Source: Phycisphaerae bacterium (GTDB taxonomy: Bacteria; Planctomycetota; Phycisphaerae; Phycisphaerales; SM1A02). Taken from it: 35,008 nt of DNA. This document shows positions 12,606 through 33,869 of the stretch, one piece after another (the first letter of the stretch is position 1; each line of letters begins with the position of its first letter). Both the position numbers and the translations under genes were made by a program. The stretch is taken from contig JAUIHC010000001.1 of the NCBI GenBank assembly GCA_030432455.1, forward strand, positions 1 through 35,008, given 5' to 3'. The notes beneath the pieces are model-generated. The model saw only the letters and a program-made list of their open reading frames with translations, was not told the origin of the DNA and searched no databases.

Positions 12606-13754
12606 TCAGGTGGCGCCGGTCACGCCCTTGATCACGGCATGGGCCTGTTCCATGCCCCAGGTGAGGCACAGTTCGGACCTCCACTCGTCCTCGACCGCAT
12701 CGGTACCCGGCGTCTGGATGTCCGCCTTGAGGTGAGGCAGCCACCCCTCGGAGTAGCGGATCTCCGCCTGGGCGGGATCAACTACGAGGCCATAGCCCGC
12801 GTGGGGGCCGACCAGGGCGCGATGTGGGATGAGGTTCACAGTGCCGTGGCTGGTGAAGATCTTCCGGATCGTGAGACCAGCGGCCACGCTTCCGGACATC
12901 ACCTGCATCGCACCGTGGTACAGCTGGTTGCACGTCTCCAACATCAGCGTGCCGCAGAACATGAACTTCTCCGGCGAGCCGTACGCGAACGGGTTGCGAA
13001 GTGCCAGGTCGAGCCGCGCCTTCGACATGGTGCCGGCCACGTCGTCGACGTTGGTAGTCACGTGCTGGAGGATGCCGCCCATTGTCGTGACCCGGTTGCC
13101 GCTTCCATCGGTGACGCCGGAACTGCGCGCACCGAAGACAATCGACCGCTCGATCGAGCGGATGTGGTCTTCGAACTTCGTGCGGCGCAGTCGGGCTCGT
13201 TCGTCCTCAGTCAGCGTGCCGTGACGCTGCATGCGCCCGGTGAGGCCCACGGTGTCACGGAACGTCTGGAGGTAGTTGTGATCGAGCGTCGGGTCGTAGT
13301 TCCGGGCGGACGCCTTGGGGGCACCCTCGCCGGCGGCGGCACCGACACACTGAACGTTTGCGTTGTCGGCAACCGATCCCGCGGCAGCAGCGACGACGCT
13401 GCCGACGCCGCGTACAACCGTGAGAGTATTGGTAGCGACGGCGGTCACGAGACCGACCTCACCCGTCGCCTCGAAGAGGATCAGGCTGTTCGCGTAGAAG
13501 ACGGTTCCGTCGTCGACGACGATCGACGTGGTGTTCTCGTCATAGTTGTCCGGGGCGTTGTTGATTGCCGTCCGACGGCCGTCGAGGCTCTGCGTGCTCC
13601 ACTCGACCTTCTCGGCCATCGTCGGCCTCGCCTGGCCGCGAGCGATCAGTGACGAGTAAATGGGCATTTCATCCGCGCCCTGAACGAGGATGATCTCCTG
13701 CGTGACGTCACGATCCAACGGACCCGTGAAGTCAGTCACCTTCAGATTCGCCAT
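12606..13754 (-). CDS. major capsid protein (HK97 fold; resembles the SU10 / N4-gp56 family)
   Basis: 382 aa with a strong AAGGAGA SD, located after the scaffold gene. The N-terminal pattern ...MPIYSSLIARGQARPTMAEKVEWSTQSL... resembles the TPF..l.....a.n...eW.ed.L signature as I recall it. Confidence 0.8.
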   Translation of the reverse strand: MANLKVTDFTGPLDRDVTQEIILVQGADEMPIYSSLIARGQARPTMAEKVEWSTQSLDGRRTAINNAPDNYDENTTSIVVDDGTVFYANSLILFEATGEVGLVTAVATNTLTVVRGVGSVVAAAAGSVADNANVQCVGAAAGEGAPKASARNYDPTLDHNYLQTFRDTVGLTGRMQRHGTLTEDERARLRRTKFEDHIRSIERSIVFGARSSGVTDGSGNRVTTMGGILQHVTTNVDDVAGTMSKARLDLALRNPFAYGSPEKFMFCGTLMLETCNQLYHGAMQVMSGSVAAGLTIRKIFTSHGTVNLIPHRALVGPHAGYGLVVDPAQAEIRYSEGWLPHLKADIQTPGTDAVEDEWRSELCLTWGMEQAHAVIKGVTGAT

Positions 13755-14519: not shown

Positions 14520-14804
14520 TCAGCGCCCCACCGTGAAGGGCGGGGGAATGTCATCTACGCTCGGGGCGTTCCACCCCGGGTTGTCTCTCTCCGCTCGCTC
14601 CGTCCAGAGTCGCATCTGGGACTTCGACCAACGGTCGATCGAGTTCGTCTTCAGCTCGACGATGTCACGCTGGATGTGAGTCTTGAGCGTCGCGTCGTGC
14701 ACGCCCCAGATGAGCACCATCACAAAGATCCCGATCGAGATGCCGGTTTCCTTCGTGATCATCATTCTGCCGTTGCCATTGCCGTTTCCGCTGCCGTTGC
14801 TCAT
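14520..14804 (-). CDS. small single-pass membrane protein with an N-terminal (Asn-Gly)n run
   Basis: 94 aa: MSNGSGNGNGNGRMMITKETGISIGIFVMVLIWGV... It has an ATGA overlap with the stop of the Mu-F-like gene. Confidence 0.55.
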   Translation of the reverse strand: MSNGSGNGNGNGRMMITKETGISIGIFVMVLIWGVHDATLKTHIQRDIVELKTNSIDRWSKSQMRLWTERAERDNPGWNAPSVDDIPPPFTVGR

Positions 14805-15898
14805 GCCGCGAGGCTCCTCGTCAGGTCACCAGTTGCCAGCGCGTGCCGATATGCCGCCAGCGCCTTCCGGTGCATGGACTCAAGGTGAGGGGATGACACG
14901 CCCGGCACGAACGCGACGGTGCCCTTGCTGCAGTTGGGGTGGAAAGGCGGCCCGCCCTGGGGGAGCGATGCGATCGCCGGGTACTCGTCAGACCCGCCTC
15001 GAATGCTCACGACCAGGCCGATGAACCGCGTGCAGAAATTCCGACTCACGCGACCGGTGATCTGGACGGTGTGGATGCCGTTCCGGTCAAGGCGCTGATG
15101 CCGGCCCGCGACCGTTGCCTCACGCGTCCTGGTGCGCACGACCATCTGCGTGTACTGGGCGACACTCATCTCGGCTCGCCCGACCTGGATGCGCTTCCGC
15201 CCGAGTTTGCGGTACGACTCCAACTCCGGCGCGTTCGGGTCGCGGAACTGCTCGCGGAGCAACGCCTCGGCCTCGCGAGGATCACCCGTGATGAGCCCGC
15301 GTGCGATCGCACGGTTGACCGTCGGCTCCAGACGCGAGAGGCGCCCCGATGAGAGGCTCCGGAACACGGCCTGAGCCTGGTCGACATAGATCCGCATCGA
15401 GTCACTCAGGCGGGCGGTGGTGTCCGTTGCGATCGCGTTGATGGCGTCCTGGTCGATCCCCTCGAATCCGACAGTGACGGAGCCGGCTGGCAACACCTCG
15501 GCCGCCTGCCGGACACCCTGGCCGTCTCCGAGCTTGTACGCGTCGTCGGCCATGCCGCGGATCCGCTCGAACGACCCGGATCGGGTGACCGTCGCGACCT
15601 CAGAGATTCGGCGCAGCAGCTCCGCGGAGCGAGCGACCCGGTAATCGACTGACTCGGAGGTGAGGCGCTCGTTAGCGATTGTCTCACCGATCATGGCATT
15701 GATGCGCGCGGCGGCATCGTCGTACAGCGAGACGACGACGGCCTCGCGCTCCCGGGTGGATCCCTGGCGTGGGTTCCCCGGGACGTCGTCGCCGGAGACT
15801 CCGGAGGGGTTATCGACGTTGGGGTCGTCCGGCATGGTCGGGATCTCCGCGATCGCCAGGATGAGCGTGATGATGAGGTGGAGTGCCAGGCGGATCAT
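14801..15898 (-). CDS. head morphogenesis protein, Mu gpF / SPP1 gp7 family
   Basis: The C-terminal ...LPQGGPPFHPNCSKGT... matches the family PP.HpnCrC signature. It lies directly after the portal. The start at 15898 (ATGA overlap) adds a hydrophobic N-terminus (LALHLIITLILAIA). An alternative ATG at 15835 would remove it. Confidence 0.8.
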   Translation of the reverse strand: MIRLALHLIITLILAIAEIPTMPDDPNVDNPSGVSGDDVPGNPRQGSTREREAVVVSLYDDAAARINAMIGETIANERLTSESVDYRVARSAELLRRISEVATVTRSGSFERIRGMADDAYKLGDGQGVRQAAEVLPAGSVTVGFEGIDQDAINAIATDTTARLSDSMRIYVDQAQAVFRSLSSGRLSRLEPTVNRAIARGLITGDPREAEALLREQFRDPNAPELESYRKLGRKRIQVGRAEMSVAQYTQMVVRTRTREATVAGRHQRLDRNGIHTVQITGRVSRNFCTRFIGLVVSIRGGSDEYPAIASLPQGGPPFHPNCSKGTVAFVPGVSSPHLESMHRKALAAYRHALATGDLTRSLAA

Positions 15899-17406: not shown

Positions 17407-18899
17407 CACATCACCCCCGGGGCGAGGGCGACGACGCGGGCCGCGGACTTCTTCGCCGCCGCGGCATGGAGCCCGAGCATGCACGCCCACGCCTCGTCGG
17501 CGTGGCCGGACTGATCGCCGACACTGACGAACCGCTCAGCGCCGCTCGATGAGACCAGGCGGTCGATTGAGCCGAACGCGGCGTTGATTTCCTCGTCGTT
17601 GGGGATCGTGACCGTCCGGTCTTCCATGTGCTTCCGGCATCGCGTCGCCATGTCCGCCTTGCTCCGCACGGTGAACGCCACGGGTTCACACCGCGAGCGG
17701 TACCTCTCGGCACACTCCTCGGCGAGTTGCATTCCAAGCCCGGTCTTATCGATCGCGATGCAACGCACCCGGGCCGTGTTGCCCTTCTTCGATTCGACCC
17801 TCAGGCCCATGACCGCGTCGATGGCGTGCCGCATCTCGGCGAACTGTCGGCCGCGCCACCGAAGCACGCCGATGGTCGTGAAGGTCGATCCCCGCCGGCC
17901 GAGGATCCAAAGGACGAACTTGTCACCCTCAGCGCTGCGCCCGATGTCGGCGCCAGCGTAGAGGTGCGTCATCTCACCGTCGGTCTCCTCAACCGCCTTG
18001 ACCACGTCCGCGATCACCGCCATCAGGTTGCCCTTGGGGAGCGGTGTCTTCGGATCGGTGACCGGTTCGAGAACCGAGAAGGGGAACCAACCCATCTCAG
18101 CATCGCGCGGGACGCACTCGTACTCTTCGAGGTACTCCGGCTCCGACATGCACTTGGACCGGCAGTCGGCGAGGAAACTTTCTCGGGTGTACGACGTGCC
18201 CATCACCTCGTTGATCCGCTCGACGAGTCCCTGCTCGACGGCGAGGGAGATCGGGATGTGATGCAGGCTGACGGGAAGATCGGTCTTGAGCGGTGAGCCG
18301 TGGGCCTCGGGGGCGAGGCGGCGGTGGCCCATCTCGCAGAGCGTGTTGAACCGGCTGAGCATGCCGTTGTGCGTACTGATCGCGGCGATGCGTCCGCCCC
18401 ACGTGGTGACGGGCACGGCCGCCTTCCATATCTCGGCGGGGCGTTCATGGAACGCCAGCTCATCCAGGACGACGTCACCCTTCGGGCCACGGAACGCCTT
18501 CGGGTTCGATGACATCGCGGTGAGTCGAGGCGTGCGTCCACGCACCTCGGGGAAGTCGATCGTGAACACACGCATGTCACGCGCCTCGAAGAGCTCCCAG
18601 CCTTCGGCGATACGCACGACCTGTCCGACCGCTTCACAGAAGAACTTGACCTCTTCGACGAACTCCCGCGCCTTGTCCTCGTCCGCGGAGCTGTACCGCA
18701 CATCGATCGGACGTGTGCCGTTGAGGCGCGACATCGCAATGTTCGCAGCCTCGGCATACGTCATGCCCGTCTTCCGTCCCTTCACGCAGACCTTGACGGG
18801 TGATGTGTCATTGCACCATGCGATCTGGTACGGCAACAGGTACGGCCGCTTGCGCTTGCTCGCGACGCCTCCGGGTTGGAGCTCGGCCATCGCCATCAT
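17406..18899 (-). CDS. terminase large subunit
   Basis: The internal ATG at 18899 (MMAMAELQPGG...) forms an ATGA overlap with the upstream stop. The protein is 497 aa with a Walker-A-like VKGRKTGMT and Asp-containing nuclease-half motifs (HLYAGADIG, CIAIDKTGLG). Confidence 0.85.
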   Translation of the reverse strand: MMAMAELQPGGVASKRKRPYLLPYQIAWCNDTSPVKVCVKGRKTGMTYAEAANIAMSRLNGTRPIDVRYSSADEDKAREFVEEVKFFCEAVGQVVRIAEGWELFEARDMRVFTIDFPEVRGRTPRLTAMSSNPKAFRGPKGDVVLDELAFHERPAEIWKAAVPVTTWGGRIAAISTHNGMLSRFNTLCEMGHRRLAPEAHGSPLKTDLPVSLHHIPISLAVEQGLVERINEVMGTSYTRESFLADCRSKCMSEPEYLEEYECVPRDAEMGWFPFSVLEPVTDPKTPLPKGNLMAVIADVVKAVEETDGEMTHLYAGADIGRSAEGDKFVLWILGRRGSTFTTIGVLRWRGRQFAEMRHAIDAVMGLRVESKKGNTARVRCIAIDKTGLGMQLAEECAERYRSRCEPVAFTVRSKADMATRCRKHMEDRTVTIPNDEEINAAFGSIDRLVSSSGAERFVSVGDQSGHADEAWACMLGLHAAAAKKSAARVVALAPGVM

Positions 18900-19606
18900 C
18901 CCGCTGCCCCTTCGTACTCGGCCCCGGTCAGGACGGCCGTCAGCATCGCGCCGATCTCTTCCGTGCTCAGGCTGCCGCGGGCGTTCGCAACGTCTTCGAG
19001 GACGGCCCTGAGCTTCCGCTCCCGCTCCTCGGTCTGCACGCGCTTCAGTGCGACCTCGCCCTGCACCTTCGCCGCGTTGGTGACCATCTCCAGGCTGCGC
19101 GCCATCCAGTGGCGCTCGGCATTGGAGTACAGGTGCAGCGGACGCACGCGGAGCATCGACACGAGGCCGGCGGTGTAGAAACACACCAGGCGTTCGAGGA
19201 GTATCTCGAGGCGACCATCCGCCGCGAAGGCGACGTCTTTCGATGCGACGTTTCGGATGTACTGCGAGTCAAGCTCGTTGTACTTTTTGCGGACTGCGTG
19301 GAGCCAGCGATCGATCATCGACCCGCTGATTGCGGGCAGATCCTTGCTCATCTCTCCGAGGATCTTGTGCGCGGATTCACCGCCGATGATGTGGCGACGT
19401 GCGACGTCCAGGAGGACGCCCTCGTTGAGCGTCCACATCTTCGCGCGTCCGCCGCGCTTGTTGCCAGGGCGCGACGCCTGGATCGCTTCGAAGACGAACG
19501 ACAACCGCATGTGATCGTGCATCGCGATCATGCCGACGCCGGACTCCTCGACCGCTTCGGTCGTCGTCGTGGCGCTGTCCGGGTTGTCGTCCTTCGCCTT
19601 CGCCAT
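18896..19606 (-). CDS. terminase small subunit candidate
   Basis: 236 aa, directly upstream of and coupled to the large terminase. It has an N-terminal HTH-like segment and a helical C-terminus. The call rests mainly on position. Confidence 0.45.
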   Translation of the reverse strand: MAKAKDDNPDSATTTTEAVEESGVGMIAMHDHMRLSFVFEAIQASRPGNKRGGRAKMWTLNEGVLLDVARRHIIGGESAHKILGEMSKDLPAISGSMIDRWLHAVRKKYNELDSQYIRNVASKDVAFAADGRLEILLERLVCFYTAGLVSMLRVRPLHLYSNAERHWMARSLEMVTNAAKVQGEVALKRVQTEERERKLRAVLEDVANARGSLSTEEIGAMLTAVLTGAEYEGAAG

Positions 19607-22735: not shown

Positions 22736-23332
22736 ATGTTTGCCGAACGCCTCTACATCCCCTCGATCGACCCCCGCACAGTCTCTCCTGAAGCGCGGCT
22801 CCTCGTTGCGCTCCTCGACACTCTTCCCACCAACTCATCCTGCGTGCGGCTTGGGATCATGCATGCCGAGCGCATCCTCCGGGAGCCGCCGGTCAAATTG
22901 CTCCGGGAACTGGAGACCGCCGGCGTCCTGCGATTCCGTCGATCCACTGAAGAAGAGATCACCGTCTACGCGGAATCCCCCATCCGAGGAGGCCGCCGCG
23001 TGAACGGGATCGGCTACAACCTCGGCGAGTACGTCTACGAGCGCTTCGGCGTCGGCGACAAGGAAGGCCCGAAGGTGCCGGAGGCGGTAACTCGGATCGT
23101 CTCACGAACCGGGGAGGGCCTCTCGACCGAGTTCACGACTGAGTCGGGGAACGCCTTCGACGTGTACGGGCGGTGGTGCCGTGACCAGAACGGCAATCCG
23201 GTACCAACGCGCCTCCCCACCTATGGGCGCATCCGCAAGCTCACCGAGCGTGATGTGGCAACACACCCCGTCATCGTCAATGACATCGAATCGATCTTCC
23301 CGCGTCGGAAGCGGAGGCCCGCGAAGAAGTGA
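22736..23332 (+). CDS. hypothetical protein (possible winged-helix domain)
   Basis: The ATG at 22736 is preceded by GGGGGAG. The protein is 198 aa, contains ...LLRELETAGVLRFRR..., and has a basic C-terminus (RRKRRPAKK). It is coupled to the transposase by a GTGA overlap. Confidence 0.55.
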   Translation: MFAERLYIPSIDPRTVSPEARLLVALLDTLPTNSSCVRLGIMHAERILREPPVKLLRELETAGVLRFRRSTEEEITVYAESPIRGGRRVNGIGYNLGEYVYERFGVGDKEGPKVPEAVTRIVSRTGEGLSTEFTTESGNAFDVYGRWCRDQNGNPVPTRLPTYGRIRKLTERDVATHPVIVNDIESIFPRRKRRPAKK

Positions 23333-25572
23333 CGGCACTCCCGCGCCAACATGACAGCGACCCGGCCGCCTGGGTCCCGATCGCGCACGCCGCGCATGTC
23401 ATGGGCGTCGGTACCGCCCGGCTCCGTCAGCGCTGCCGCAATGAACTCGCCGGCAAGGGGCTCGCCCGCAAGTGCCGCGTGTCGAGCGGTCAGGAGTCCT
23501 GGCACGTTCACCCCTCGATCGATCGTCGGCTCGGATCAGGAACCCCGGACACAACACCCGCGGAACTGCTCGCGTCGATCCCCAAGTCGCAACGCGATGC
23601 GGCGGAGTGTCGGGCGCTGATGCTCCGCGACTTCCGGCGCTGGCGCGATCTTCGTTCGACGAACGTCCGCCGTGACTTCGATGCCTTCCGTGCGTCGATG
23701 TCCCAACGGTACGAGTCGCCGGTGCCCGCGCTCTCACGCTTCTACTCGTGGAACGAGATCGCGCCGTCGAGCGATGACTTCCCCGGATGCGTGCTCGCGC
23801 TGGTCGACACCCGCGGCGGTGCACAGTCCGGTCAGGTCGGCGGTGTATCAGCTCCGGCGTGGCAGCGCTTCGAGGCGCTGTATCTGACGCCTCAGCGATG
23901 GTCGATCGCCAAGTGCCACCGAACGCTCAAGGTCGAGGCGAAGCATCACGGCTGGAATTGGCCGGGGTCTGCACGCCAGGTCCAGAACCTTGTGCGCGAA
24001 CGCATCACGCCACAACGCGCGGTTATGGCCCGTGACGGCGTCGACGCATGGCGCCACAAGTTCCTGACTCCGCTCGAGCAGGATCCCGACGCATGGCTCG
24101 CCGGGCAGTGTTGGGAGGGCGACCACTCACGGCTCGACCTCTTCGTCCGTGTCTTCCGCGGGGGCAAGTGGGTCTCCGACCGTCCGTGGCTCACTGCGTG
24201 GAAGGACCGTCGGTCGCGCCGAGTGATGGGATGGGTCGTTGGCATGAATCCCAACTCCGACGCGATCCGCGGCGCCCTCATGCGGGCGCTTCGTGATGAG
24301 ACGGCCTCCGTGCCGGAGTACGTCTGGATCGATAACGGCAAGGACTTCGCGGCGGCGGAGTTCGGCGGCAAGACCAAGAAGCAACGCCGGCGTGCCCGCC
24401 GCGAAGACCGGGAGATGAACACTGTCGCGTGGGCCGGCCTCTTCGGCATGCTCGGCGTCGACGTCCACTTCGCCGAGGCGTACAACCACAACGGCAAAGC
24501 GAGGATCGAGCGGTCGTTCGGCACGCTCCACATGGACCATGACCGGGAGTATCCGAGTTGGTGCGGCTCGAAGCCCGGCGATCGCGACCGTGAGTCACTC
24601 GACGCCGTCCTCGCCGACGTGATGTCCCTCCCAACCGTCGATGACGTGCGCGAGTCGATCGACCGTTGGATCGAGTACTACAACCATCGCGCCGATCACA
24701 GCATCGACGCCCTCGCCGATCCGGAGACGGGCCGGAAGGTCTCGCCCGTCGAGTTCTACGCGGCGCAGATCCCCGCGAAGCGAACGCTTCCGGATCGTGG
24801 CGCTCTGGCGCTCCTCGAGCAGCGCTGGTCGCGGCCGCTCAAGGTGACGAAGCACGGCGTCTCGCTACGCATCGGCGGGCAGACCGTGAGCTTTGGTGAC
24901 GTTGCGAGCGAACTCGATCGACTTCGCGGCTCCGATGACACCGTGCTGGTCACCTACGACCCGGACGACACGACGCGCGTCCGTGTGTACGACATGGCGG
25001 GCGTGTTCCTGTGTGTCGCCGAGCAGAACATGAGACATGGCGGGCCAACGTATGACCCGGTCTCGGTCGAGGCCCGAAAGCGTGCCCTCGCCCGCCGGCG
25101 TGCGGCGCAGCGTGAGGTCAAGAAGTCGATCGACGTCGCCGCGCTGACCGATACCCCGGCGTCGCTGGCCGCTGATGAGCAGCGCCGGATCGAGATCGAA
25201 GAGACTCAGGCTCGGCTCTCTGAGATGGGCGCCGACGCACCGCCGCCGATCCGCTTGGTGCGGACAGCCGTCGACGGTCAATCGGACAAGGTCGACCAGG
25301 CCGAACGCATGGCGATGGCCGCGGGCGCCGAGCACTACGACGACGGGGAGGAATCAGTCATCGACGCGTTGGTCGAGGACTTCCGGCGCGAGGAGGAGCG
25401 CAACCGCGCGGCCCGCGACATGGCCGAGCCGGAGTGCATCACGTTCGCGATCGACGACGACGACGACCAGGACGACGACGAGGAGATCGACGTCGACGGG
25501 ATCACCACGCTCCTGATCGGGGCGGACGACGAATGCCAAGAGGACGGGGCAGCGTACCCGTGGGACGAATGA
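23329..25572 (+). CDS. MuA-like DDE transposase (rve integrase core)
   Basis: The DDE triad contexts are WEGDHSRLD, YVWIDNGKDF and HNGKARIERSFGTL. The protein has an N-terminal HTH-like region and an acidic C-terminal tail (DDDDDQDDDEEIDVDG). The exact start is uncertain: GTG at 23329, or the downstream Met of 'MGVGTARL'. Confidence 0.85.
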   Translation: MTALPRQHDSDPAAWVPIAHAAHVMGVGTARLRQRCRNELAGKGLARKCRVSSGQESWHVHPSIDRRLGSGTPDTTPAELLASIPKSQRDAAECRALMLRDFRRWRDLRSTNVRRDFDAFRASMSQRYESPVPALSRFYSWNEIAPSSDDFPGCVLALVDTRGGAQSGQVGGVSAPAWQRFEALYLTPQRWSIAKCHRTLKVEAKHHGWNWPGSARQVQNLVRERITPQRAVMARDGVDAWRHKFLTPLEQDPDAWLAGQCWEGDHSRLDLFVRVFRGGKWVSDRPWLTAWKDRRSRRVMGWVVGMNPNSDAIRGALMRALRDETASVPEYVWIDNGKDFAAAEFGGKTKKQRRRARREDREMNTVAWAGLFGMLGVDVHFAEAYNHNGKARIERSFGTLHMDHDREYPSWCGSKPGDRDRESLDAVLADVMSLPTVDDVRESIDRWIEYYNHRADHSIDALADPETGRKVSPVEFYAAQIPAKRTLPDRGALALLEQRWSRPLKVTKHGVSLRIGGQTVSFGDVASELDRLRGSDDTVLVTYDPDDTTRVRVYDMAGVFLCVAEQNMRHGGPTYDPVSVEARKRALARRRAAQREVKKSIDVAALTDTPASLAADEQRRIEIEETQARLSEMGADAPPPIRLVRTAVDGQSDKVDQAERMAMAAGAEHYDDGEESVIDALVEDFRREEERNRAARDMAEPECITFAIDDDDDQDDDEEIDVDGITTLLIGADDECQEDGAAYPWDE

Positions 25573-26675
25573 CCAAGCATCACGACAACCCACCATCGAG
25601 TGAAGGATTGCTCGATCAGTTGGCGCAGGAGGCGCGTGTGATCAATACAGCTGCGGCGGTGCTCCCCGAAGAGGGCGAACTGAACGGTGACCAGGTCCGG
25701 GAGGTCGCGGAGCGACTCGATGCGTACCTGAGTGCCAAGCGCTTGACGCCGTTCGTCGTCGGGCGGCAGACCGGGCGTGCCGTTTCCTCGATCGAGTCGT
25801 TCCTGAAGGGCGCCTACGGCGGCAATGTGAGCAAGCTCGCACGGCTGATCAACCGCTGGCTCGATCAGCACCAGGGCGGCGAGGAGAAGTTCAGCCACAC
25901 CTACACCTCGACCAAGGTCACCGATCGCATGCTCACGCTCATGAAGCTGGCGCAGCGCGAGCGGCAGATCGGTGTCATCACCGGTCCCTCCGGCATCGGC
26001 AAGTCGATGGTCTGCCAGGCGGCTGCTTCCGGTGAGATACCCGGCGCGACGCATGTGCATTGTCTGCAGGGCTCATCGACGGCGTTCCAGTTCGCGCAGC
26101 TGTGGGCCGCCGAGTTGCAGTTGAAGGCCCGCGGCGGACTCTTCCAGGTCCAGAGAGCCATCATCGAGCAGCTGCGAGGATCGGACCGGCTACAGATCAT
26201 CGACGAGGCGCAGTACCTCCACACGAAGGCCGCGAACGTCATCCGCGACGTGTGCAAGGTTGCCGGCGTCGGGGTGGCCCTGGTCGGGACCGTGGACATC
26301 GAACGGAACATCAACGACCGCACGCAGTTCTACGGCCAGTTCGAGCGGCTCATCGTCGCCCGCTACAACATCGTCGAGGAGCACGTGCAGAATGGCGGCC
26401 GCCCCCTCTACACCGTCGAGGAGATCGTCCGCTTCGCCGCGAGTCGCAAGCTCAAGCTCAGCGGCGATGCCGCCGAGTTCGCGACGCGCCTCGCATGTGT
26501 GCCCGGGTACGGCGGGCTTGGTCGCTTGGGCAACATCCTCTTCGTCGCCAGCAAGGTGGCGAAGACGGGCACCATCACCCTGAAGAACCTCAAAGCGGCG
26601 GTCAAGCACGGCCTTGGCGCTCAGCACGCCGAGCGCTGGAGCATCGAGGCCAGCCGTCTGAAGGCCACCGCGTAG
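25569..26675 (+). CDS. MuB-like AAA+ ATPase (transposition target-DNA activator)
   Basis: The ATG at 25569 forms an ATGA overlap with the transposase stop. It has Walker A GPSGIGKS, Walker B LQIIDEAQ and an N-terminal HTH-like region. Confidence 0.8.
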   Translation: MTKHHDNPPSSEGLLDQLAQEARVINTAAAVLPEEGELNGDQVREVAERLDAYLSAKRLTPFVVGRQTGRAVSSIESFLKGAYGGNVSKLARLINRWLDQHQGGEEKFSHTYTSTKVTDRMLTLMKLAQRERQIGVITGPSGIGKSMVCQAAASGEIPGATHVHCLQGSSTAFQFAQLWAAELQLKARGGLFQVQRAIIEQLRGSDRLQIIDEAQYLHTKAANVIRDVCKVAGVGVALVGTVDIERNINDRTQFYGQFERLIVARYNIVEEHVQNGGRPLYTVEEIVRFAASRKLKLSGDAAEFATRLACVPGYGGLGRLGNILFVASKVAKTGTITLKNLKAAVKHGLGAQHAERWSIEASRLKATA

Positions 26676-26684
26676 GAGAAAGCC

Positions 26685-27248
26685 ATGCCCTGGTCGAAGT
26701 CACAGAACATCATGCTTCAGAAGGCCGCGAAGGCCGCCGGCTGGAACAGCGAGCAGCGCTACATGGCGATGCGCTATGTCGGCTGCCGCGACGCCAAGGG
26801 CAAGGGGCGGCCGAGCGCAACCGGACCGTCGAACACTCAGGATCAGTTCGAACTCATCATGGCGCTGGCGTACCAGCACGCGTCCATGAACAAGGCCGGC
26901 CACGCTGTCCCCGCGCCGCGGAGCGGTACCTGGAGCGACGCGGCCGAAGCCATCGGCGCCCGCGTGCGCCGCAAGATCGAGGACGTGTGGATGGAGGCGT
27001 CGCAGCGCATCTCAGACGTGTTCCATCCGCGCGGCCTCGACGGCTTTGTGATCCGCCAGACGAAGAACGACCCCGCCGAGTTCTCGTTCGATGACTCGCC
27101 GCGATCGCTGGAGGAGTGCGACACCGCGCAGCTCTATCGGATCCTCGAGGGGCTCAAGGGATGGATCGGCCGCGAGATGCTCAGGCGCGGGCTGACGCCC
27201 TCGACGTTCGAGATCCCGGCACACGCCCGGCGTCAGGTCGGTGCATGA
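26685..27248 (+). CDS. GemA / Mu gp16-like protein (DUF1018-like)
   Basis: 187 aa with a TAGGAGAAAGCC SD. It sits after the B-like gene. The N-terminal pattern LQKAAKAAGWNSEQRYMAMRYVG...SNTQDQFELIMALA resembles the DUF1018 signature as I recall it. Confidence 0.45.
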   Translation: MPWSKSQNIMLQKAAKAAGWNSEQRYMAMRYVGCRDAKGKGRPSATGPSNTQDQFELIMALAYQHASMNKAGHAVPAPRSGTWSDAAEAIGARVRRKIEDVWMEASQRISDVFHPRGLDGFVIRQTKNDPAEFSFDDSPRSLEECDTAQLYRILEGLKGWIGREMLRRGLTPSTFEIPAHARRQVGA

Positions 27249-27626: not shown

Positions 27627-27806
27627 ATGACCAAGCCCCTCATCGAAATCACGCTCAACGGGCACGCCATCGTCGGCCTCGGCCTTCCGGTGCTCACGGC
27701 CGCCCTGGTCCTCCTGCTGGTGTACGGCGTGCGGCGCATCAACCGGCCGCGCATCGGACGCGGCGTACCGCGCCATTTCATCAAGACGAGGGGAGGCCGG
27801 GCATGA
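27627..27806 (+). CDS. small single-pass membrane protein (59 aa; below the ORF-track cutoff)
   Basis: I read this directly from the sequence: MTKPLIEITLNGHAIVGLGLPVLTAALVLLLVYGVRRINRPRIGRGVPRHFIKTRGGRA. Its stop overlaps the next ATG (ATGA). Confidence 0.45.
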   Translation: MTKPLIEITLNGHAIVGLGLPVLTAALVLLLVYGVRRINRPRIGRGVPRHFIKTRGGRA

Positions 27807-28066
27807 GCGACGTCATCCAGATCGACCAGGTCATCGAGCGGTTCCTCAAGTGGCATCCGCGCTACGCCCCGGGCTGGAAGCTGAAGGAGGAATTGGCAGA
27901 GTTCCACTTCCATCGGCTCCCGCTCGACCTGGGCGCGATGCTCGTCGGCAGGCGTGGTGACCTCGAGCACGACATCTTCGGCATCCATCGCGATGCCCGC
28001 GAGCTTCGGTCGCAGTTCGTTCCAAAGTTCAGACTGACAACGGAGGCCGCTTCGACCGCCGAGTGA
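27803..28066 (+). CDS. hypothetical small protein (87 aa)
   Basis: The ATG at 27803 is preceded by GAGGGGAGG. It contains ...RRGDLEHDIFGIHRDARELRSQFVPKF..., a motif I associate with a conserved phage family of unknown function. Confidence 0.5.
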   Translation: MSDVIQIDQVIERFLKWHPRYAPGWKLKEELAEFHFHRLPLDLGAMLVGRRGDLEHDIFGIHRDARELRSQFVPKFRLTTEAASTAE

Positions 28067-28244
28067 ATCGGCTCCCGGTCGCATGGATGCGAACCGATGA
28101 CGCAGGACGCACAACATCCCGACTTCGGGTCACACAGAAAGGTGGGCGCCGGGGCTGATCCCCCCGACGCCCGGACCGAGACCCACGTGCACGTTTCAGC
28201 CAAGCGTGGACCCCGGCAACCTCATCTTACAAGGAGAGGAACCA

Positions 28245-28430
28245 ATGGGTTCAGCAAGCTGCCCGCCGGAAAGGCGCGGGCGGGGTACTCCCCGTCCGCC
28301 CCGACCGGACGGGAATCGATATCGGGAGCAGTACGGCGTCATTGTCATCTGTTCGAACGAAGATCATCAGCGCGACGTCTACGAGCGGCTGCGCAACGAG
28401 GGGCACAAGGTCCGGGTGGTGACGACATGA
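28245..28430 (+). CDS. small protein (61 aa): basic Pro/Arg-rich N-terminus plus a beta-alpha-beta-like C-terminus
   Basis: The internal ATG at 28245 is preceded by a strong AAGGAGAGG SD. It is coupled to the ABC-GNAT gene by an ATGA overlap. The C-terminus is YGVIVICSNEDHQRDVYERLRNEGHKVRVVTT. Confidence 0.55.
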   Translation: MGSASCPPERRGRGTPRPPRPDGNRYREQYGVIVICSNEDHQRDVYERLRNEGHKVRVVTT

Positions 28431-29566
28431 GAGTCACCATCGAGCACAGGTGCCCGGACTTCACCAGCTACCGCGCTGCACGCGTCAAGAGCCTGTTCAA
28501 CGTTGACCGCGGGTGCGAGTTCGACCTGGACGTTGAACTGCCCATCGAAGACTTCGCCTGGAAGATCGGCGTCGTCGTCGGGCCGAGTGGGAGTGGCAAG
28601 ACCAGCATCGGGCAGCGCGTCCTCGGACGCCGCGCGTTCTACCGTTCCGGGCGCTGGCCGAAGTCCGAGCCGATCATCGATGCGATCCATCCCGACGGGT
28701 CGTTCGACGATGTCACCGCGGCACTGTCCGCCGTCGGGCTTGGCTCAGTTCCCACCTGGTTGCGCCCCTACCCGGTGCTGTCCAACGGGGAGCGCTTCAG
28801 AGCAGACCTCGCGCGGATCATCTGCGAGCGGCCGGGACGCGTCGTCATCGACGAGTTCACGAGCGTTGTCGATCGACAGATCGCACGCATCGGCGCGGGC
28901 GCATTCGCCAAGGCGTGGCGCCGTGGTGATGGGCGCTGCGTCCTGCTGAGTTGCCACCGCGACATCCTGTCATGGGTGCGGCCGGACTGGGTCTATGACA
29001 CCGGTACCGGCCGGTTCCAAAGGGGGTGGGTTCGGCGCCGTCCACGCATCCACCTCGACATTCACGAGACAGATTGGAGCTTCTGGCCGATGTTCGAGCC
29101 GCATCACTATCTGAAGCTCCCGCGCATGATCGGTGCGCACTGCTACGTCGGCTCCGTCCAGGGCGAGCCCGTGGCGCACGTTGCCGTCGGCTCGGCTCAT
29201 TGCGGGCACGGGATCGTGGAGGCCCGCGCGTGCCGCCTGGTCGTGATGCCGGAGTGGCAGGGCGCCGGTGTTGGAACGCGCTTCCTCAACGAGGTCTGCC
29301 GCCTGCAGCTCGCCGGCCGCGGCCGGCTCCGTGATCGCAAGGTCACGACGATGTTCCACACCTCGCATCCCGGCCTCGCCGCGGCGCTGAGGCGCGACCG
29401 TCGGTGGTCGCAGATCTCGTGCAAGCTCTACGGGGCGAGGAAAGCCGCGTCAGTCGCGTCCCTCCGGAAGTCGCGGGGTGACGGCCGGCGATCAGTCGGC
29501 ACAGGCTTCGGCGGCCACTTCCGGGCCGTCCAGGGCTTCCGCTACTACGGGGAGGCCGCGGCATGA
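28427..29566 (+). CDS. ABC-type ATPase fused to a GNAT-family acyltransferase domain
   Basis: The ATPase half has Walker A GPSGSGKT, an ABC-signature-like LSNGERFRADLA, Walker B/D-loop VVIDEFTSVVD and an H-loop LLSCHRD. The C-terminal half has the GNAT motif-A-like RLVVMPEWQGAGVGTRFLNEV, preceded by FEPHHYL. Confidence 0.7.
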   Translation: MRVTIEHRCPDFTSYRAARVKSLFNVDRGCEFDLDVELPIEDFAWKIGVVVGPSGSGKTSIGQRVLGRRAFYRSGRWPKSEPIIDAIHPDGSFDDVTAALSAVGLGSVPTWLRPYPVLSNGERFRADLARIICERPGRVVIDEFTSVVDRQIARIGAGAFAKAWRRGDGRCVLLSCHRDILSWVRPDWVYDTGTGRFQRGWVRRRPRIHLDIHETDWSFWPMFEPHHYLKLPRMIGAHCYVGSVQGEPVAHVAVGSAHCGHGIVEARACRLVVMPEWQGAGVGTRFLNEVCRLQLAGRGRLRDRKVTTMFHTSHPGLAAALRRDRRWSQISCKLYGARKAASVASLRKSRGDGRRSVGTGFGGHFRAVQGFRYYGEAAA

Positions 29567-30081
29567 GCGATCGGCTGTTCCACTGCTACACGAGCCTCAT
29601 GGACCGCTCTCGCTTCATCACGCGGTGTCGGGCGGTCGCTGTGCGGCACGGGTTCCGGGAGACCGGTGATCCCGCGCGCGCACACTTCGCGATCGCCCCG
29701 CTGCTGACCCGCAAGCTCTCGGATGACGAACTCGCGGCGTCGCGCCTCGGCGTCCTCATCTTCCATCCCTCCGCGCTCCCCTACCGCCGCGGCATGGACG
29801 CCATCAAGTGGGCGCTCGATGCCGGCGAGCCGGTGAGCGGCGTGACGTGGTTTTGGGGCGGCCGTGGACTCGACACGGGTCCGATCTGCGCCCAGGAGCC
29901 CGTCGTGCTCAAGGCCGGCGAGACGCCGCGCGAGGCGTACGAGCGTCGGTTCATCCCGGCGGGCCTCACCGCCCTCGACCAGGCCATCTCTGAGATCTCG
30001 CGCGGCCGAGTGCGCCGCGTTCACCAGGACGAGTCGCTGGCGACATACGACCAGCGCTTCCCCACTCGAAAGGAGTCGTGA
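29563..30081 (+). CDS. minimal formyltransferase-like protein (Fmt/PurN catalytic core)
   Basis: LGVLIFHPSALPYRRGMDAIKWAL..GEPVSGVTWF....GLDTGPI....Q.ESLATY lines up with the Fmt core (INVHxSLLPRWRGAAPIQ..., GVT, LDTG, Q.E...TY). The conserved His and Asp are present but the Asn is replaced by Phe. The protein is 172 aa, with no C-terminal tRNA-binding domain and a shortened N-terminal subdomain. Confidence 0.7.
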   Translation: MSDRLFHCYTSLMDRSRFITRCRAVAVRHGFRETGDPARAHFAIAPLLTRKLSDDELAASRLGVLIFHPSALPYRRGMDAIKWALDAGEPVSGVTWFWGGRGLDTGPICAQEPVVLKAGETPREAYERRFIPAGLTALDQAISEISRGRVRRVHQDESLATYDQRFPTRKES

Positions 30082-32038: not shown

Positions 32039-32535
32039 CCACGATCGCGAAGCGACCGATTCCACCGACCGGCATCCTTCAGGAGTGGGTGGCGCGGCTC
32101 GGACTTCGACACCAGGGGGTCCTGGTGTCTTCGATCCGGGGGTGTGACACCGCTCCGAAGAACGATCCAAGCAAGCGGCTCACGCGAGTGCTGCGCGGGC
32201 TGATCCTCAACACACACTGCGAGAACCCCCACGACGCCCGCAGCTTCATCGAACCGATGGCAGCCGACGAAGCGGTGACCCAAGTGCCGCTCGTCATCGC
32301 CGCTTTCTGCGACGTCGTCGATCAATGCCCGCACCACTTTGTGATGCACGCGGTTCACGCCATCGAGGTGATCGCGTACAAGCATCCGTCCCCGGTCATC
32401 CGCGACATTTGGACCTGGGCGTACTTCGACCTTGCACACCGGCTCCACCTCTCACCCGAGACGGAGGAGCAACTCGACTGCCGCCTGAACGCGGATGAGA
32501 GTGAGTTCGCCGAAGCCCAAGGGGGGATCGGATGA
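32035..32535 (+). CDS. His/Cys-rich hypothetical protein (166 aa), coupled to the BCS1-like ATPase
   Basis: It has ATGA overlaps on both sides. Its motifs are LRHQGVLVSSIRGCD, HCENPHD and CPHHFVMHAVHAIEVIAYKHP. Confidence 0.6.
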   Translation: MTTIAKRPIPPTGILQEWVARLGLRHQGVLVSSIRGCDTAPKNDPSKRLTRVLRGLILNTHCENPHDARSFIEPMAADEAVTQVPLVIAAFCDVVDQCPHHFVMHAVHAIEVIAYKHPSPVIRDIWTWAYFDLAHRLHLSPETEEQLDCRLNADESEFAEAQGGIG

Positions 32536-33869
32536 TGCTGAGCGACGTCTTCTCCATTGCGATGGAGTTTCTTCGCGAGAACGAGTTCGCATCCGGCGGC
32601 TTGGTGATCGGGGCCGCCACCGGCGTGCTCTACTCGATTCGATCACTTCCCGGGAAGCTCTGGGCCCTGCTGCGACGGCGAATCATGTTCGAAGTCGAGG
32701 TGCTCGATACCGACGAGGCGTACAACTGGTTGATGCTCTGGGTGGCAACCAAGACAAGCCGGCGCTGGAACCGTCGAGTAACGGCCGTCACATCCGGCGC
32801 GGGCGCACTCTTCCGTGCGCAGGGGTCCATGTCGTATCAGGGGGAGGACGACAGGCGGGCAATTCGGCTCATTCCCGCGCCCGGAACACACCTCGTGATG
32901 CACCGTGGCTCGCCGGTTCTCGCGCTTCGAAGCCGGGACGATGATTCGAAGAGCATGATGTCCGATCGGCTTCTCCGCCCCGAGAGCCTGACGCTGGTCA
33001 TATTCCGAGGTGGGCGGGGGGCGGCGCTTGAGATCATTGAGGAGGCCCGTTGTCTCGCTCAGCCGAATCAGGACATCAACATCCGGGTGATGGCGTTCGA
33101 GTGGGGATGCTGGTCGACAACCCACCGACTTCGCCGACGTCCGGCAGACTCCGTTGTTCTGGCGAACCATGCCCAGGACGTGATCGTCGAGGACCTCCGC
33201 CGATTCATCGGCTCGGAAGACTGGTATGCGGAGCGGTGCATCCCTTGGCGCCGCGGCTACCTCCTCCACGGTCCGCCCGGGAACGGGAAGACGAGTCTCA
33301 TCCAGGCGATGGCCGCTGAGGCCGGACAGGACATTGGGATCCTCCGCCTTGCAGACAAGGATATGACGGACGCACGTCTCGCCGAAGCGGTGGCCACGAG
33401 CCGCGACAACGGATTGATCCTGGTGATCGAGGATGTCGACGCCGCCTTCGGCCCTGATCGCGAGAAGGGGGAGAAGGGAAGCCAGCTCACATTCAGCGGC
33501 CTCATCAATGCGATCGACGGCCTCAACTCGCCAGGCGGCCAGATCGTCGTGATGACAACGAACCACCCCGACCGACTCGACGAGGCTCTGTTCCGTCCGG
33601 GGCGCGTCGATGTGACGCTTGAGATCGGCAACGCCACGCCTGACCAGGCTCGGCGGATCGCCCTCCGCTTCGGCCTCACTGCCGATGAAGCGAGCGACTT
33701 TGCGACGATGGTTCGTGAAGGTGAGCCCCGGTCGATGGCGTCGCTCCAGGCCGAACTCCTGGCCATGTCATCGAAGCCGGGACGCCGACCGCGGAAGAGT
33801 CCCGGACCTGAGTTGATTGAGAGCCTTCGTGTGCTCGCTGACGATCTCGGCCGAGGGGGTGACGGATGA
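32532..33869 (+). CDS. BCS1-type AAA+ ATPase (N-terminal TM + BCS1_N-like domain + AAA domain)
   Basis: It has an N-terminal TM helix (GGLVIGAATGVLYSI) and then the segments EVEVLDTDEAYNWLMLWVATK, RLIPAPGTHLVMHRGSPVLALRSRD and PWRRGYLLHGPPGNGKTSLIQAMA (Walker A). These are followed by LILVIEDVDAAF (Walker B), LTFSGLINAIDGL and MTTNHPDRLDEALFRPGRVD. These blocks run collinear with the yeast Bcs1 sequence as I remember it. Confidence 0.8.
   Translation: MMLSDVFSIAMEFLRENEFASGGLVIGAATGVLYSIRSLPGKLWALLRRRIMFEVEVLDTDEAYNWLMLWVATKTSRRWNRRVTAVTSGAGALFRAQGSMSYQGEDDRRAIRLIPAPGTHLVMHRGSPVLALRSRDDDSKSMMSDRLLRPESLTLVIFRGGRGAALEIIEEARCLAQPNQDINIRVMAFEWGCWSTTHRLRRRPADSVVLANHAQDVIVEDLRRFIGSEDWYAERCIPWRRGYLLHGPPGNGKTSLIQAMAAEAGQDIGILRLADKDMTDARLAEAVATSRDNGLILVIEDVDAAFGPDREKGEKGSQLTFSGLINAIDGLNSPGGQIVVMTTNHPDRLDEALFRPGRVDVTLEIGNATPDQARRIALRFGLTADEASDFATMVREGEPRSMASLQAELLAMSSKPGRRPRKSPGPELIESLRVLADDLGRGGDG

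Follow-up and report, generated by a model that had tools for sequence, protein, structure and literature searches.

The window, which is the whole stretch of 35,008 nucleotides analysed here, carries a Mu-like genome in which one polypeptide of 379 aa joins an ABC-type ATPase to a GNAT acyltransferase, and the question raised by this locus is what such a protein acylates and which part its two neighbours play. The 379-aa ORF (28427-29566) lies on the plus strand between an ORF of 61 aa (28245-28430) and a formyltransferase-like ORF of 172 aa in its short form (29563-30081), both also on the plus strand. The ATGA overlaps described for this cassette in the original prediction were read at both junctions, and its strong Shine-Dalgarno was likewise read directly from the sequence as AAGGAGAGG at positions 28231-28239 of the plus strand, with a spacing of 5 nt to the start codon (ATG) of the 61-aa ORF. 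The upstream region had been described as a hairpin-containing gap of 180 nt with, perhaps, a promoter of its own. The gap has 178 nt and does contain one G+C-rich hairpin (28144-28172) with an 11-bp stem including 10 G-C pairs, with a weak T-rich tail behind it on the minus strand and no T run on the plus strand. However, the region folds no better than its shuffles (z of -0.66), and a scan of the 178 nt for sigma-70-like promoters found none. The G+C content of the cassette (0.66-0.695) is close to that of the whole window (0.657), and for this reason a foreign insertion is not indicated.

The N-terminal half of the 379-aa protein (about aa 1-200; 28427-29026, plus strand) was assigned as an ABC-ATPase domain from its motifs and from profile and structure matches. 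In an alignment of 39 sequences, the Walker A GPSGSGKT (aa 52-59, nt 28580-28603) is invariant. The signature region LSNGERFRADLA (aa 118-129), whose LSNGE at aa 118-122 starts at nt 28778, keeps L118, S119, G121 and E122 invariant and N120 nearly so. The same holds, without exception, for D142, E143, F144, S146 and D149 of the Walker B and D-loop VVIDEFTSVVD (aa 139-149, nt 28841-28873; VVIDEF at 139-144, SVVD at 146-149) and for C176, D179 and the H-loop histidine H177 in SCHRD (aa 175-179, nt 28949-28963), all of these motifs being on the plus strand. Although every motif listed in the original prediction is thus invariant, to call the set complete slightly overstates it, since no glutamine of the Q-loop is invariant in aa 60-117, a segment of only 58 aa. 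A D or E at position 85 might stand in for this glutamine, which in ABC transporters is the element coupling the nucleotide-binding domains to the permeases. HMMER alignments of the protein to SufC and EttA span aa 118-198. The fold of an ABC nucleotide-binding domain was recovered by a Foldseek search with the AF2 model (pLDDT 76), which gave E-values from 5e-9 to 7e-8 with the nucleotide-binding domains of ABCB6, GlcV, MalK, FtsE and MlaF; the ABC half is therefore nearest to transporter-type domains, and not to those of the SMC, MutS or UvrA types.

Transporter domains being its closest structural matches, this half recalls a proposal made in 2010 for gp29 of phage phiE255, with which the 379-aa protein is 64% identical. 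The authors of that work suggested a gene for lysogen fitness, a "moron" encoding the ATPase of an ABC transporter for import or export (PMC2920897), and many database names agree with them. Nevertheless, in the loci examined we found no membrane permease as a partner, but ParB-like and formyltransferase-like proteins; the nucleotide-binding domain is fused to a GNAT, and the short stretch from the Walker A to the signature lacks a conserved Q-loop glutamine. A transporter function is hardly credible on these grounds.

On the evidence of profiles, Foldseek and motifs, the C-terminal half (about aa 205-379; 29039-29566, plus strand) is a GNAT domain, for which an acyl-CoA-dependent transfer to an amine is predicted. 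Searched alone, it reached 27.2 with Acetyltransf_7 (cut-off 27) and 22.5 with Acetyltransf_1 (cut-off 20.7) in Pfam, and the second of these models was also matched by 6 of 6 diverse family members, with a best E-value of 1.1e-9. The acyl-CoA pyrophosphate-binding motif region RLVVMPEWQGAGVGTRFLNEV (aa 270-290, nt 29234-29296, plus strand) holds the loop QGAGVG at aa 278-283, in which Q278, G279, A280, G281 and G283 are invariant and V282 is nearly so in the 39-sequence alignment. In the search of PDB profiles this loop aligns with the same CoA loop of diamine acetyltransferase 2. Family-specific motifs on the plus strand are FEPHHYL (29093-29113), FHTSHPGL (29354-29377) and GxGGHFRAVQGFRY (29504-29545). 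Finally, the secondary-structure order of the AF2 model is consistent with the GNAT topology. The two domain calls of the original prediction are consequently borne out by the match to phrog_11143, by Foldseek on each half and by Pfam gathering scores, and the fold check that it had proposed for the C-terminal half gave GNATs in 35 of 35 PDB profile matches and stand-alone GNATs in BFVD, with target TM-scores up to 0.64.

The 61-aa protein had been considered a generic leader. Sequence comparison identifies it instead as the stand-alone C-terminal tail, a beta-alpha-beta module, of a ParB-like partner. Its identity to the C-terminal 41 aa of gp1 of the Gordonia phage Axumite, which is ParB-like, is 46% (E 6e-12), and it matches phrog_28816 (E 2e-13). 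In addition, a profile built from 28 ParB-like partners matches it (E 1.4e-18) only at positions 147-192 of 192. ParB_N is matched by 15 of these 28 partner proteins, with a best E-value of 1.6e-8, and by the partner protein of a Streptococcus phage at 4.7e-12. The ParB_N fold with its GxxR NTP-binding motif is absent from the 61-aa ORF, which has no Pfam match and aligns only with the last 46 positions of the profile, and no ParB N-domain was found anywhere in the 35-kb window. Small ORFs like it, 47-98 aa long, number 38 in the loci of the survey described below.

The third protein of the cassette matches Formyl_trans_N in Pfam (E 6.5e-15, 55.8 bits against a cut-off of 26.1) at profile positions 73-168 only, belongs with phrog_9240 and is homologous to phiE255 gp30 and Axumite gp3. 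It consists of the catalytic core without a C-terminal domain, and the copy in the window is also short at the N-terminus, its 172 aa being the shortest of 71 relatives and lacking the first beta-alpha unit. The catalytic His is kept in FHPSALP (HPSxLP; nt 29761-29781, plus strand) and the catalytic Asp in LDTGPI (nt 29869-29886, plus strand), both residues being invariant in 71 of 71 relatives. The Asn of the Asn-His-Asp triad is present in none of the 71 (Gly in 67, Ile in 3 and Ala in 1) and is Ile in the window copy, as judged by alignment with a PurN reference sequence in which the anchors HPSLLP and LDxGP are unambiguous.

The best NCBIfam match of this formyltransferase-like protein, well under the cut-off, is methionyl-tRNA formyltransferase (2e-12). 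This match could suggest that the ABC-GNAT protein acylates RNA or aminoacyl-tRNA for a takeover of translation, with an Fmt-like partner acting on the same substrate. The GNAT profile also touches weakly the GNAT region of NAT10 (E 0.26), and ribosomes are bound by soluble ABC-F proteins, to which the EttA matches belong. However, the similarities to EttA and NAT10 are generic and at domain level, the formyltransferase-like protein lacks the tRNA-binding domain that Fmt carries at its C-terminus, and another residue always takes the place of the catalytic Asn. Neither an antitoxin-like partner nor a TmcA-style helicase-type ATPase is found, whereas the conserved partner is ParB-like and the conserved neighbour a terminase, all of which makes an RNA target improbable. 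A search of defence and toxin-antitoxin models with PADLOC gave as its sole match a stretch of 39 residues around the ABC signature to "mad3", which is not meaningful.

The 379-aa protein belongs to a large and widespread family. It matches phrog_11143 over aa 1-377 of 379 (E 2.9e-145), and the members of this group range from Burkholderia Mu-like phages to phages of Gordonia, Porphyromonas and Streptococcus. More than 6500 clusters match it at E<=1e-5, the best 120 among them being 62-73% identical, and 2844 clusters at 50% identity do so at E<=0.001. Core members are 60-70% identical across different phyla and unrelated phage types. Natural fusions exist in which ParB, the tail and the ABC-GNAT form a single chain of 568-623 aa; in the AF2 model of one of them the domains fold, with a pLDDT of 67-79 for the tail and below 50 for the linkers. 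Two family members contain an intein, an element typical of conserved nucleic-acid enzymes. On the other hand, the distant members in Aeromonas PX29 and Nonlabens P12024S have neither ParB nor formyltransferase beside them, and some members, such as those of Streptococcus Javan phages, are split or truncated inside the GNAT half. The family already has a JGI name, "ABC-type ATPase with predicted acetyltransferase domain". A literature search on COG2401, which we take to be its COG number, returned nothing.

The conservation of the cassette was surveyed in 80 IMG/VR viral loci, the downstream gene being testable in 63 and the junction in 78. The tail lies directly upstream of the ABC-GNAT gene in 76 of the 80 loci (as a full ParB-like protein in 32 and as a tail-only ORF in 41), a formyltransferase-like gene follows directly in 61 of 63, and the same 4-nt stop/start overlap occurs in 63 of 78. 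The loci with a full ParB usually stand directly ahead of the large terminase gene. Ten loci were sampled for the next large ORF; it encodes the large terminase in 7 of them, and four terminase PHROG families are represented. In Gordonia phages the order is ParB, ABC-GNAT, formyltransferase and terminase. A different setting was observed in phiE255, which is BcepMu-like, and in Porphyromonas phages, where the cassette follows the tail genes, at the place that com-mom has in Mu. The cassette is mobile, as can be seen from gp28-30, present in phiE255 and absent at that place in BcepMu (PMC2920897). The neighbour survey of this fusion suggested in the original prediction thus gave a conserved partner on each side of the gene, but the neighbours in the window, MuA, MuB, GemA and a BCS1-like ATPase, are shared by 0 of 80 viral loci. 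Here the cassette is on the early-gene strand after GemA, a placement also found in 0 of 80. The terminase (17409-19184) is encoded about 9 kb away and on the other strand, so that the position characteristic of the "ParB-terminase large subunit locus", a concept put forward previously (PMC4738411), does not occur in the window.

The frequent proximity to the terminase would agree with a packaging accessory, in which the ABC ATPase and the ParB-like protein form a DNA-recognition or loading factor for the terminase, similar to a small terminase, the GNAT and formyltransferase parts being regulatory or vestigial. No small terminase is annotated in the Gordonia locus shown (genes 1-9), where, as in the 7 sampled loci, the cassette directly precedes the large terminase; ParB-fold proteins bind DNA sites; and some members, those of the Javan phages for example, have a split or truncated GNAT half. 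Nevertheless, the invariant CoA loop, the several motifs of the GNAT half and the His and Asp of the formyltransferase-like protein argue for catalysis. Moreover, the cassette is far from the terminase in Mu-like phages and the distant members have no ParB. We therefore give little credence to a role restricted to packaging.

On balance, the probable explanation is that these genes form a portable three-gene phage cassette for the ParB-licensed, ATP-dependent and post-replicative acyl modification of phage DNA. The 379-aa protein would be the enzyme. Its ABC domain, judging from the Walker A, the signature, the Walker B Glu, the D-loop and the H-loop, would dimerise on ATP, and the ATP cycle may serve for engaging DNA and exposing a base. 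The GNAT domain, in which the QxxGxG CoA loop is intact, would then transfer the acyl group from acyl-CoA to an exocyclic amine as the presumed acceptor. The upstream protein would be the C-terminal part of a ParB-like licensing protein, the module through which it binds its partner or dimerises; the siphovirus-type phages would retain the whole ParB with the cassette just before the terminase, and Mu-like phages, that of the window included, would have been left with the tail alone. The formyltransferase-fold protein would be an obligatory third component, probably for a second step on the adduct or for preparing the donor, and this is the weakest of our inferences. The likely purpose would be to shield progeny DNA against restriction by the host, or to mark DNA for packaging. 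A more specific form of this explanation, possible but doubtful, is a new two-step hypermodification, installed after replication on a normal DNA base, in which the ABC-GNAT protein acylates, the formyltransferase fold performs a second step with only His and Asp, and the tail of about 35 residues, as a portable module for licensing or dimerisation, suffices without the ParB NTPase domain; this last point would account for Mu-like phages keeping the tail alone.

The original prediction had left the choice between modification of DNA and acylation of aminoacyl-tRNA for translation takeover. The former is the better supported, by the adjacency and fusion to ParB, by the frequent position before the terminase and by the com-mom place of the cassette in BcepMu-like and Porphyromonas phages, and the latter has no contextual support. 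Another candidate substrate is a protein, either of the host (nucleoid, RNA polymerase or a defence protein) or of the phage itself (the ParB-like partner or the terminase), with ATP binding gating access. Proteins or small molecules are the substrates of most characterised GNATs, the phage Rac enzyme among them (PMC7824862), the three cassette proteins show no identifiable DNA-binding domain, transporter-type nucleotide-binding domains are normally coupled to protein partners, and the adjacency to ParB and terminase is also compatible with a substrate within the packaging machinery. However, a protein target leaves unexplained the obligatory partner of formyltransferase fold, and the other variable enzymes associated with ParB in phage ParB-terminase loci, such as methylases and TET/JBP dioxygenases, are DNA modifiers (PMC4738411; PMC13229309). 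A protein target appears unlikely in view of both facts.

Several features of the cassette nevertheless sit uneasily with a DNA substrate. The ABC domain is transporter-like, without an obvious Q-loop glutamine and without a DNA-binding domain. The phage of the window has no ParB N-domain and places its cassette unlike the 80 surveyed loci. The best named match of the formyltransferase-like protein leaves room for an RNA-linked role, and the members of PX29 and P12024S lack the accompanying ParB and formyltransferase.

The combination of ABC and GNAT domains is not a new idea, and the 379-aa protein belongs to a known family whose function was already predicted. Iyer, Zhang, Burroughs and Aravind reportedly predicted a phage DNA-modification system of this kind in NAR in 2013. 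The proposal that the GNAT coupled to an ABC ATPase places an acyl modification of uncharacterised kind on a DNA base was restated in Viruses in 2021 (PMC7824862), and together with the JGI name it removes the novelty which the original prediction had attributed to an ABC-type ATPase in this role. The full-text literature searched contained no experimental study, modified base or activity for any family member. If this system does acylate DNA, it would represent a chemically new class among phage DNA modifications, with bearing on restriction evasion, on artefacts of sequencing and cloning, and on enzyme tools. Recent experiments found that DNA base modification in phages is licensed by ParB-like proteins, and a DNA-acylating cassette would widen that finding. 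The anatomy of the cassette offers testable hypotheses: that the tail alone is enough, that the formyltransferase-like protein is nearly obligatory and always without Asn, and that there are two genomic settings.

Among known systems, the formyltransferase-like protein resembles the catalytic domain of PurN, Fmt and ArnA in its Formyl_trans_N match above the cut-off, its HPSLLP His and its triad Asp, and it differs from them in the Asn, never present in its relatives, and in having no C-terminal domain. Membership of the AtaT/TacT toxins, which are stand-alone GNATs of about 170 aa paired with a DNA-binding antitoxin, was rejected: in the cassette the GNAT shares its chain with an ABC ATPase, the ParB-tail partner has no Pfam DNA-binding domain, and the defence and toxin-antitoxin models gave nothing beyond the short ABC-signature match already mentioned. 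TmcA/NAT10, like the 379-aa protein, fuse a P-loop NTPase to a GNAT, and they couple ATP hydrolysis to the acetylation of a nucleic-acid base; however, their ATPase is helicase-type (RecD-like) and accompanied by a tRNA-binding domain, whereas the ATPase of the cassette is ABC-type, with no further domain detected, in another genomic context and with only the generic GNAT match already mentioned, and membership was discarded. Mom of phage Mu modifies a DNA base against restriction, and Com is its translational activator. Like the system of the window, Mom is of the GNAT superfamily, belongs to a transposable phage and has a small ORF overlapping the start of its gene, and the cassettes of phiE255 and Porphyromonas phages share with Mom/Com the position at the end of the late operon. 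Mom differs in having neither an ATPase domain nor a formyltransferase partner. The hhalign comparison of the GNAT-half profile with Mu Mom gave a probability of 0.2%, and the 61-aa protein, a ParB tail, gave no alignment with Mu Com; both homologies were discarded. The analogies drawn with Mom and TmcA in the original prediction are thus limited to the fold. The clade E thymine dioxygenases of the 5mYOX group also pair a DNA-modifying enzyme with a ParB-like protein; this partner joins an NTP-binding domain at the N-terminus to a C-terminal domain, is devoid of a DNA-binding domain and activates the enzyme only when both of its domains are present (PMC13229309). In the genome mining of the same preprint, terminases were among the domains most frequent in the same contigs (19.2%). 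Those enzymes are Fe/2-oxoglutarate dioxygenases, not ABC-GNAT proteins, and have no formyltransferase partner. The closest system is that of Iyer et al. (PMC7824862), which corresponds to phrog_11143. The window has the two-domain architecture and the phage setting in common with it, together with a link to the large terminase that is seen in relatives. It differs in the tie to ParB-like proteins, of which the window shows the C-terminal tail alone, and in the position of the cassette on the early strand and off the terminase.

Three plus-strand ORFs make up the cassette of the window: a 61-aa ORF (28245-28430), with AAGGAGAGG 5 nt before its start, the 379-aa ORF encoding the ABC-GNAT protein (28427-29566) and a 172-aa ORF encoding a formyltransferase-like (FT-like) protein (29563-30081). 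Their coordinates give ATGA stop/start overlaps at both junctions, as originally predicted. The hairpin-containing gap claimed upstream was also found; it measures 178 nt and holds one G+C-rich hairpin (28144-28172). It folded no better than shuffles of its sequence (z -0.66), and a scan of it for sigma-70-like promoters gave none. Directly before the gap lies an 87-aa ORF (27803-28066, plus strand) matching Pfam DUF6874 exactly at the cut-off (27 bits, E 4.9e-6), at a place that we take to be about that of Mor in Mu-like genomes.

All the motifs named in the original prediction were located in the 379-aa protein (aa 52-59, 118-129, 139-149, 175-179 and 270-290). Its N-terminal half gave sub-threshold matches to Pfam ABC_tran and AAA_16, many matches to ABC ATP-binding subunits in NCBIfam and the PDB (SufC, EttA, ABCB1) and, with an AlphaFold2 model (pLDDT 76), Foldseek matches to ABC nucleotide-binding domains (E ~5e-9). 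In an alignment of 39 sequences Walker A was invariant, except for T/S at its last position, and so were the key residues of the signature LSNGE, the Walker B DE, the D-loop and the H-loop His. The half was thus rightly called an ABC ATPase, and the alignment shows the motif set of a putative ATP sandwich to be intact; the set is complete as claimed except for the Q-loop, since no invariant glutamine occurs in the 58 residues between Walker A and the signature. A transporter moron is a reading that we regard as extremely improbable for a cassette whose ATPase continues into a GNAT.

Searched on its own, the C-terminal half (aa 205-379) passed the Pfam gathering scores of Acetyltransf_7 and Acetyltransf_1, the latter being matched by all six diverse family members (best E 1.1e-9). 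All 35 PDB matches of its profile were GNATs (best E 0.011), and among viral models Foldseek paired it with stand-alone GNATs and retrieved a full-length twin of ABC-GNAT in Leptospira phage LE4 (TM 0.70). Five of the six residues of the acyl-CoA loop QGAGVG were invariant in the 39 sequences and V282 was nearly so, showing the predicted loop to be intact. Profile, fold matches and conserved loop together confirm the GNAT assignment of this half; the outcome that the original prediction gave as refuting it, a C-terminal half without the GNAT fold, did not arise.

The 379-aa protein is matched end to end by phrog_11143 (E 2.9e-145). Of clusters built at 90% identity, over 6500 match it; the best 120 of these are 62-73% identical to it, yet come from many phyla. 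At 50% identity an exhaustive HMMER search gave 2844 clusters, with E<=1e-30 for 525. ABC-GNAT is present in 61 deposited phage genomes, including Burkholderia phiE255, Lactococcus P335 and T4-like Aeromonas phages and those of Pseudomonas, Gordonia, Porphyromonas, Streptococcus, Oenococcus, Leptospira and Nonlabens. In two relatives, P0160 (715 aa) and P0217 (575 aa), the ABC domain harbours an intein that combines Hint with LAGLIDADG homing-endonuclease domains. The gene was matched in two pieces, annotated as two ORFs (225 and 89 aa), in phages of Streptococcus, Oenococcus and Lactococcus, as in Streptococcus phage Javan464 (6004-7073), where the protein encoded upstream, labelled 'DNA modification methylase', is clearly of the ParB_N kind.

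The 61-aa ORF had been read as a leader; instead, it is homologous to the C-terminus of a ParB-like partner. Residues 21-61 share 46% identity (E 6e-12) with the final 41 residues of a ParB-like protein of 201 aa, gp1 of Gordonia phage Axumite, whose gene immediately precedes that of the Axumite ABC-GNAT. A profile of 28 ParB-like partners matched only this ORF in the window (E 1.4e-18), at profile positions 147-192 of 192, so that the window holds a ParB tail and no ParB N-domain. Pfam ParB_N matches 15 of the 28 full-length partners, and also that of a Streptococcus phage (E 4.7e-12). The tail, with the consensus YxEQYGVIVxCxDExEQxxVYExLxxxGxxCKVVxT, is predicted by its sequence pattern to be a beta-alpha-beta unit. 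Among 80 IMG/VR loci it stands immediately upstream of ABC-GNAT in 76, as a full ParB-like protein in 32 and as a small tail-only ORF in 41, and the 4-nt overlap with the enzyme gene seen in the window is kept in 63 of 78. Natural single-chain fusions of ParB domain, tail and ABC-GNAT (568-623 aa) also exist. These neighbourhoods show the ParB-tail partner to be obligatory; more distant relatives, in Aeromonas PX29 and Nonlabens P12024S, stand alone. The frame of the 61-aa ORF is open for 48 codons 5' of its ATG (28101-28244, plus strand), across the hairpin region, and translation from a GTG at position 28206 would lengthen the product to 74 aa; since the ParB profile covers only the last 46 residues, this open frame could be the remnant of a lost N-domain, or chance. 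In Porphyromonas gingivalis phages a 42-aa ORF labelled 'acr candidate' (3876-4004 in phage011a_WW2952) lies directly upstream of ABC-GNAT and overlaps it by 4 nt; by position and overlap it is more likely a ParB-tail module.

The FT-like gene is directly downstream of ABC-GNAT in 61 of 63 testable loci; none was detected in the Javan464 locus. Homologues of the 172-aa protein are gp30 of phiE255 ('formyl transferase') and gp3 of Axumite, wrongly labelled 'tRNA-methyltransferase'. Two residues of the Asn-His-Asp triad of PurN type, His and Asp, never vary in 71 FT-like proteins, and the Asn position holds Gly in 67, Ile in three, the window's among them, and Ala in one; the positions come from an alignment to a PurN reference, in which the HPSLLP and LDxGP anchors are unambiguous. 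Sequence conservation thus shows a formyltransferase-fold partner retaining His and Asp. None of the 71 is shorter than the window's copy, in which the first beta-alpha unit is missing.

The whole window looks like one complete 35-kb contig from a transposable phage that is Mu-like and laid out as BcepMu is; the cluster of the window's own protein is recorded on a single contig of 35008 bases. The minus strand carries late genes, including those for the SU10-type major capsid protein (12609-13754), a Mu F-like minor capsid protein (14804-15898) and the terminase (17409-19184), and the plus strand early genes, with MuA-like transposase (23329-25572), MuB-like ATPase (25434-26675) and GemA (26685-27248). 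The early-strand region also encodes a 445-aa BCS1-like AAA ATPase (32532-33869; BCS1_N E 7.5e-24, AAA E 1.2e-20; phrog_7485); BCS1 itself is familiar mainly as a translocase of proteins in mitochondria. On the early strand the cassette comes after GemA and the DUF6874 ORF, a placement shared by none of the 80 surveyed loci. Where the ParB is full, the large terminase was the next large ORF in seven of ten sampled loci, with terminases of four different PHROG families, and Gordonia phages carry ParB, ABC-GNAT, FT and terminase in this order at the left genome end. Such adjacency would also suit a packaging accessory without catalytic modification, which we consider improbable for a cassette with a conserved acyl-CoA loop; its tail-only version comes after the phage tail genes in phiE255 and in Porphyromonas phages, in the latter at the end of the genome record. 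The cassette is present in phiE255 and absent at that place in its relative BcepMu (PMC2920897), and therefore behaves as a mobile unit.

On balance we lean slightly towards a ParB-licensed, ATP-dependent acyl modification of phage DNA. The ABC domains would dimerise with ATP, engage DNA and expose a base, the acyl acceptor of the GNAT domain would be an exocyclic amine, the enzyme would be licensed or dimerised by the ParB-like protein or by the tail alone, and the FT-like protein may act on the adduct in a second step or prepare the donor. A GNAT might also act on protein, which seems unlikely, or, less probably still, on RNA or aminoacyl-tRNA; DNA as target is favoured by the link to ParB, by the adjacent terminase, by a position like that of Mom and by a recent experimental result, the requirement of a phage ParB-like protein for activating a DNA thymine dioxygenase (PMC13229309). 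That activator has an N-domain and a C-terminal domain and no DNA-binding domain (PMC13229309). The original observation is thus confirmed and its interpretation supported in part: of the two ideas first proposed, DNA modification is preferable to translation takeover, but it is neither new nor proven.

The supposed novelty of an ABC-type ATPase in this role did not hold: a passage of PMC7824862, crediting Iyer et al., NAR 2013, already predicts acyl modification of DNA bases by a GNAT with an ABC ATPase, and JGI names the family 'ABC-type ATPase with predicted acetyltransferase domain'. Full-text literature searches found no experimental study of it. The window gene is a new member of a family that has been described by computation and not characterised by experiment, and the fusion itself would not surprise a specialist. 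The cassette nevertheless occurs widely, is small and can be tested directly, the main question of its chemistry being what the atypical formyltransferase-fold partner does. Of the toxin-antitoxin and defence models compared with it, none fits. A relative of Mom was ruled out by the lack of detectable sequence relation, and Com as the identity of the small ORF by its being a ParB tail. In Mu, com-mom holds the position that the cassette takes in phiE255 and the Porphyromonas phages. The ATPase of TmcA is of helicase type and differs in this from that of the window protein.
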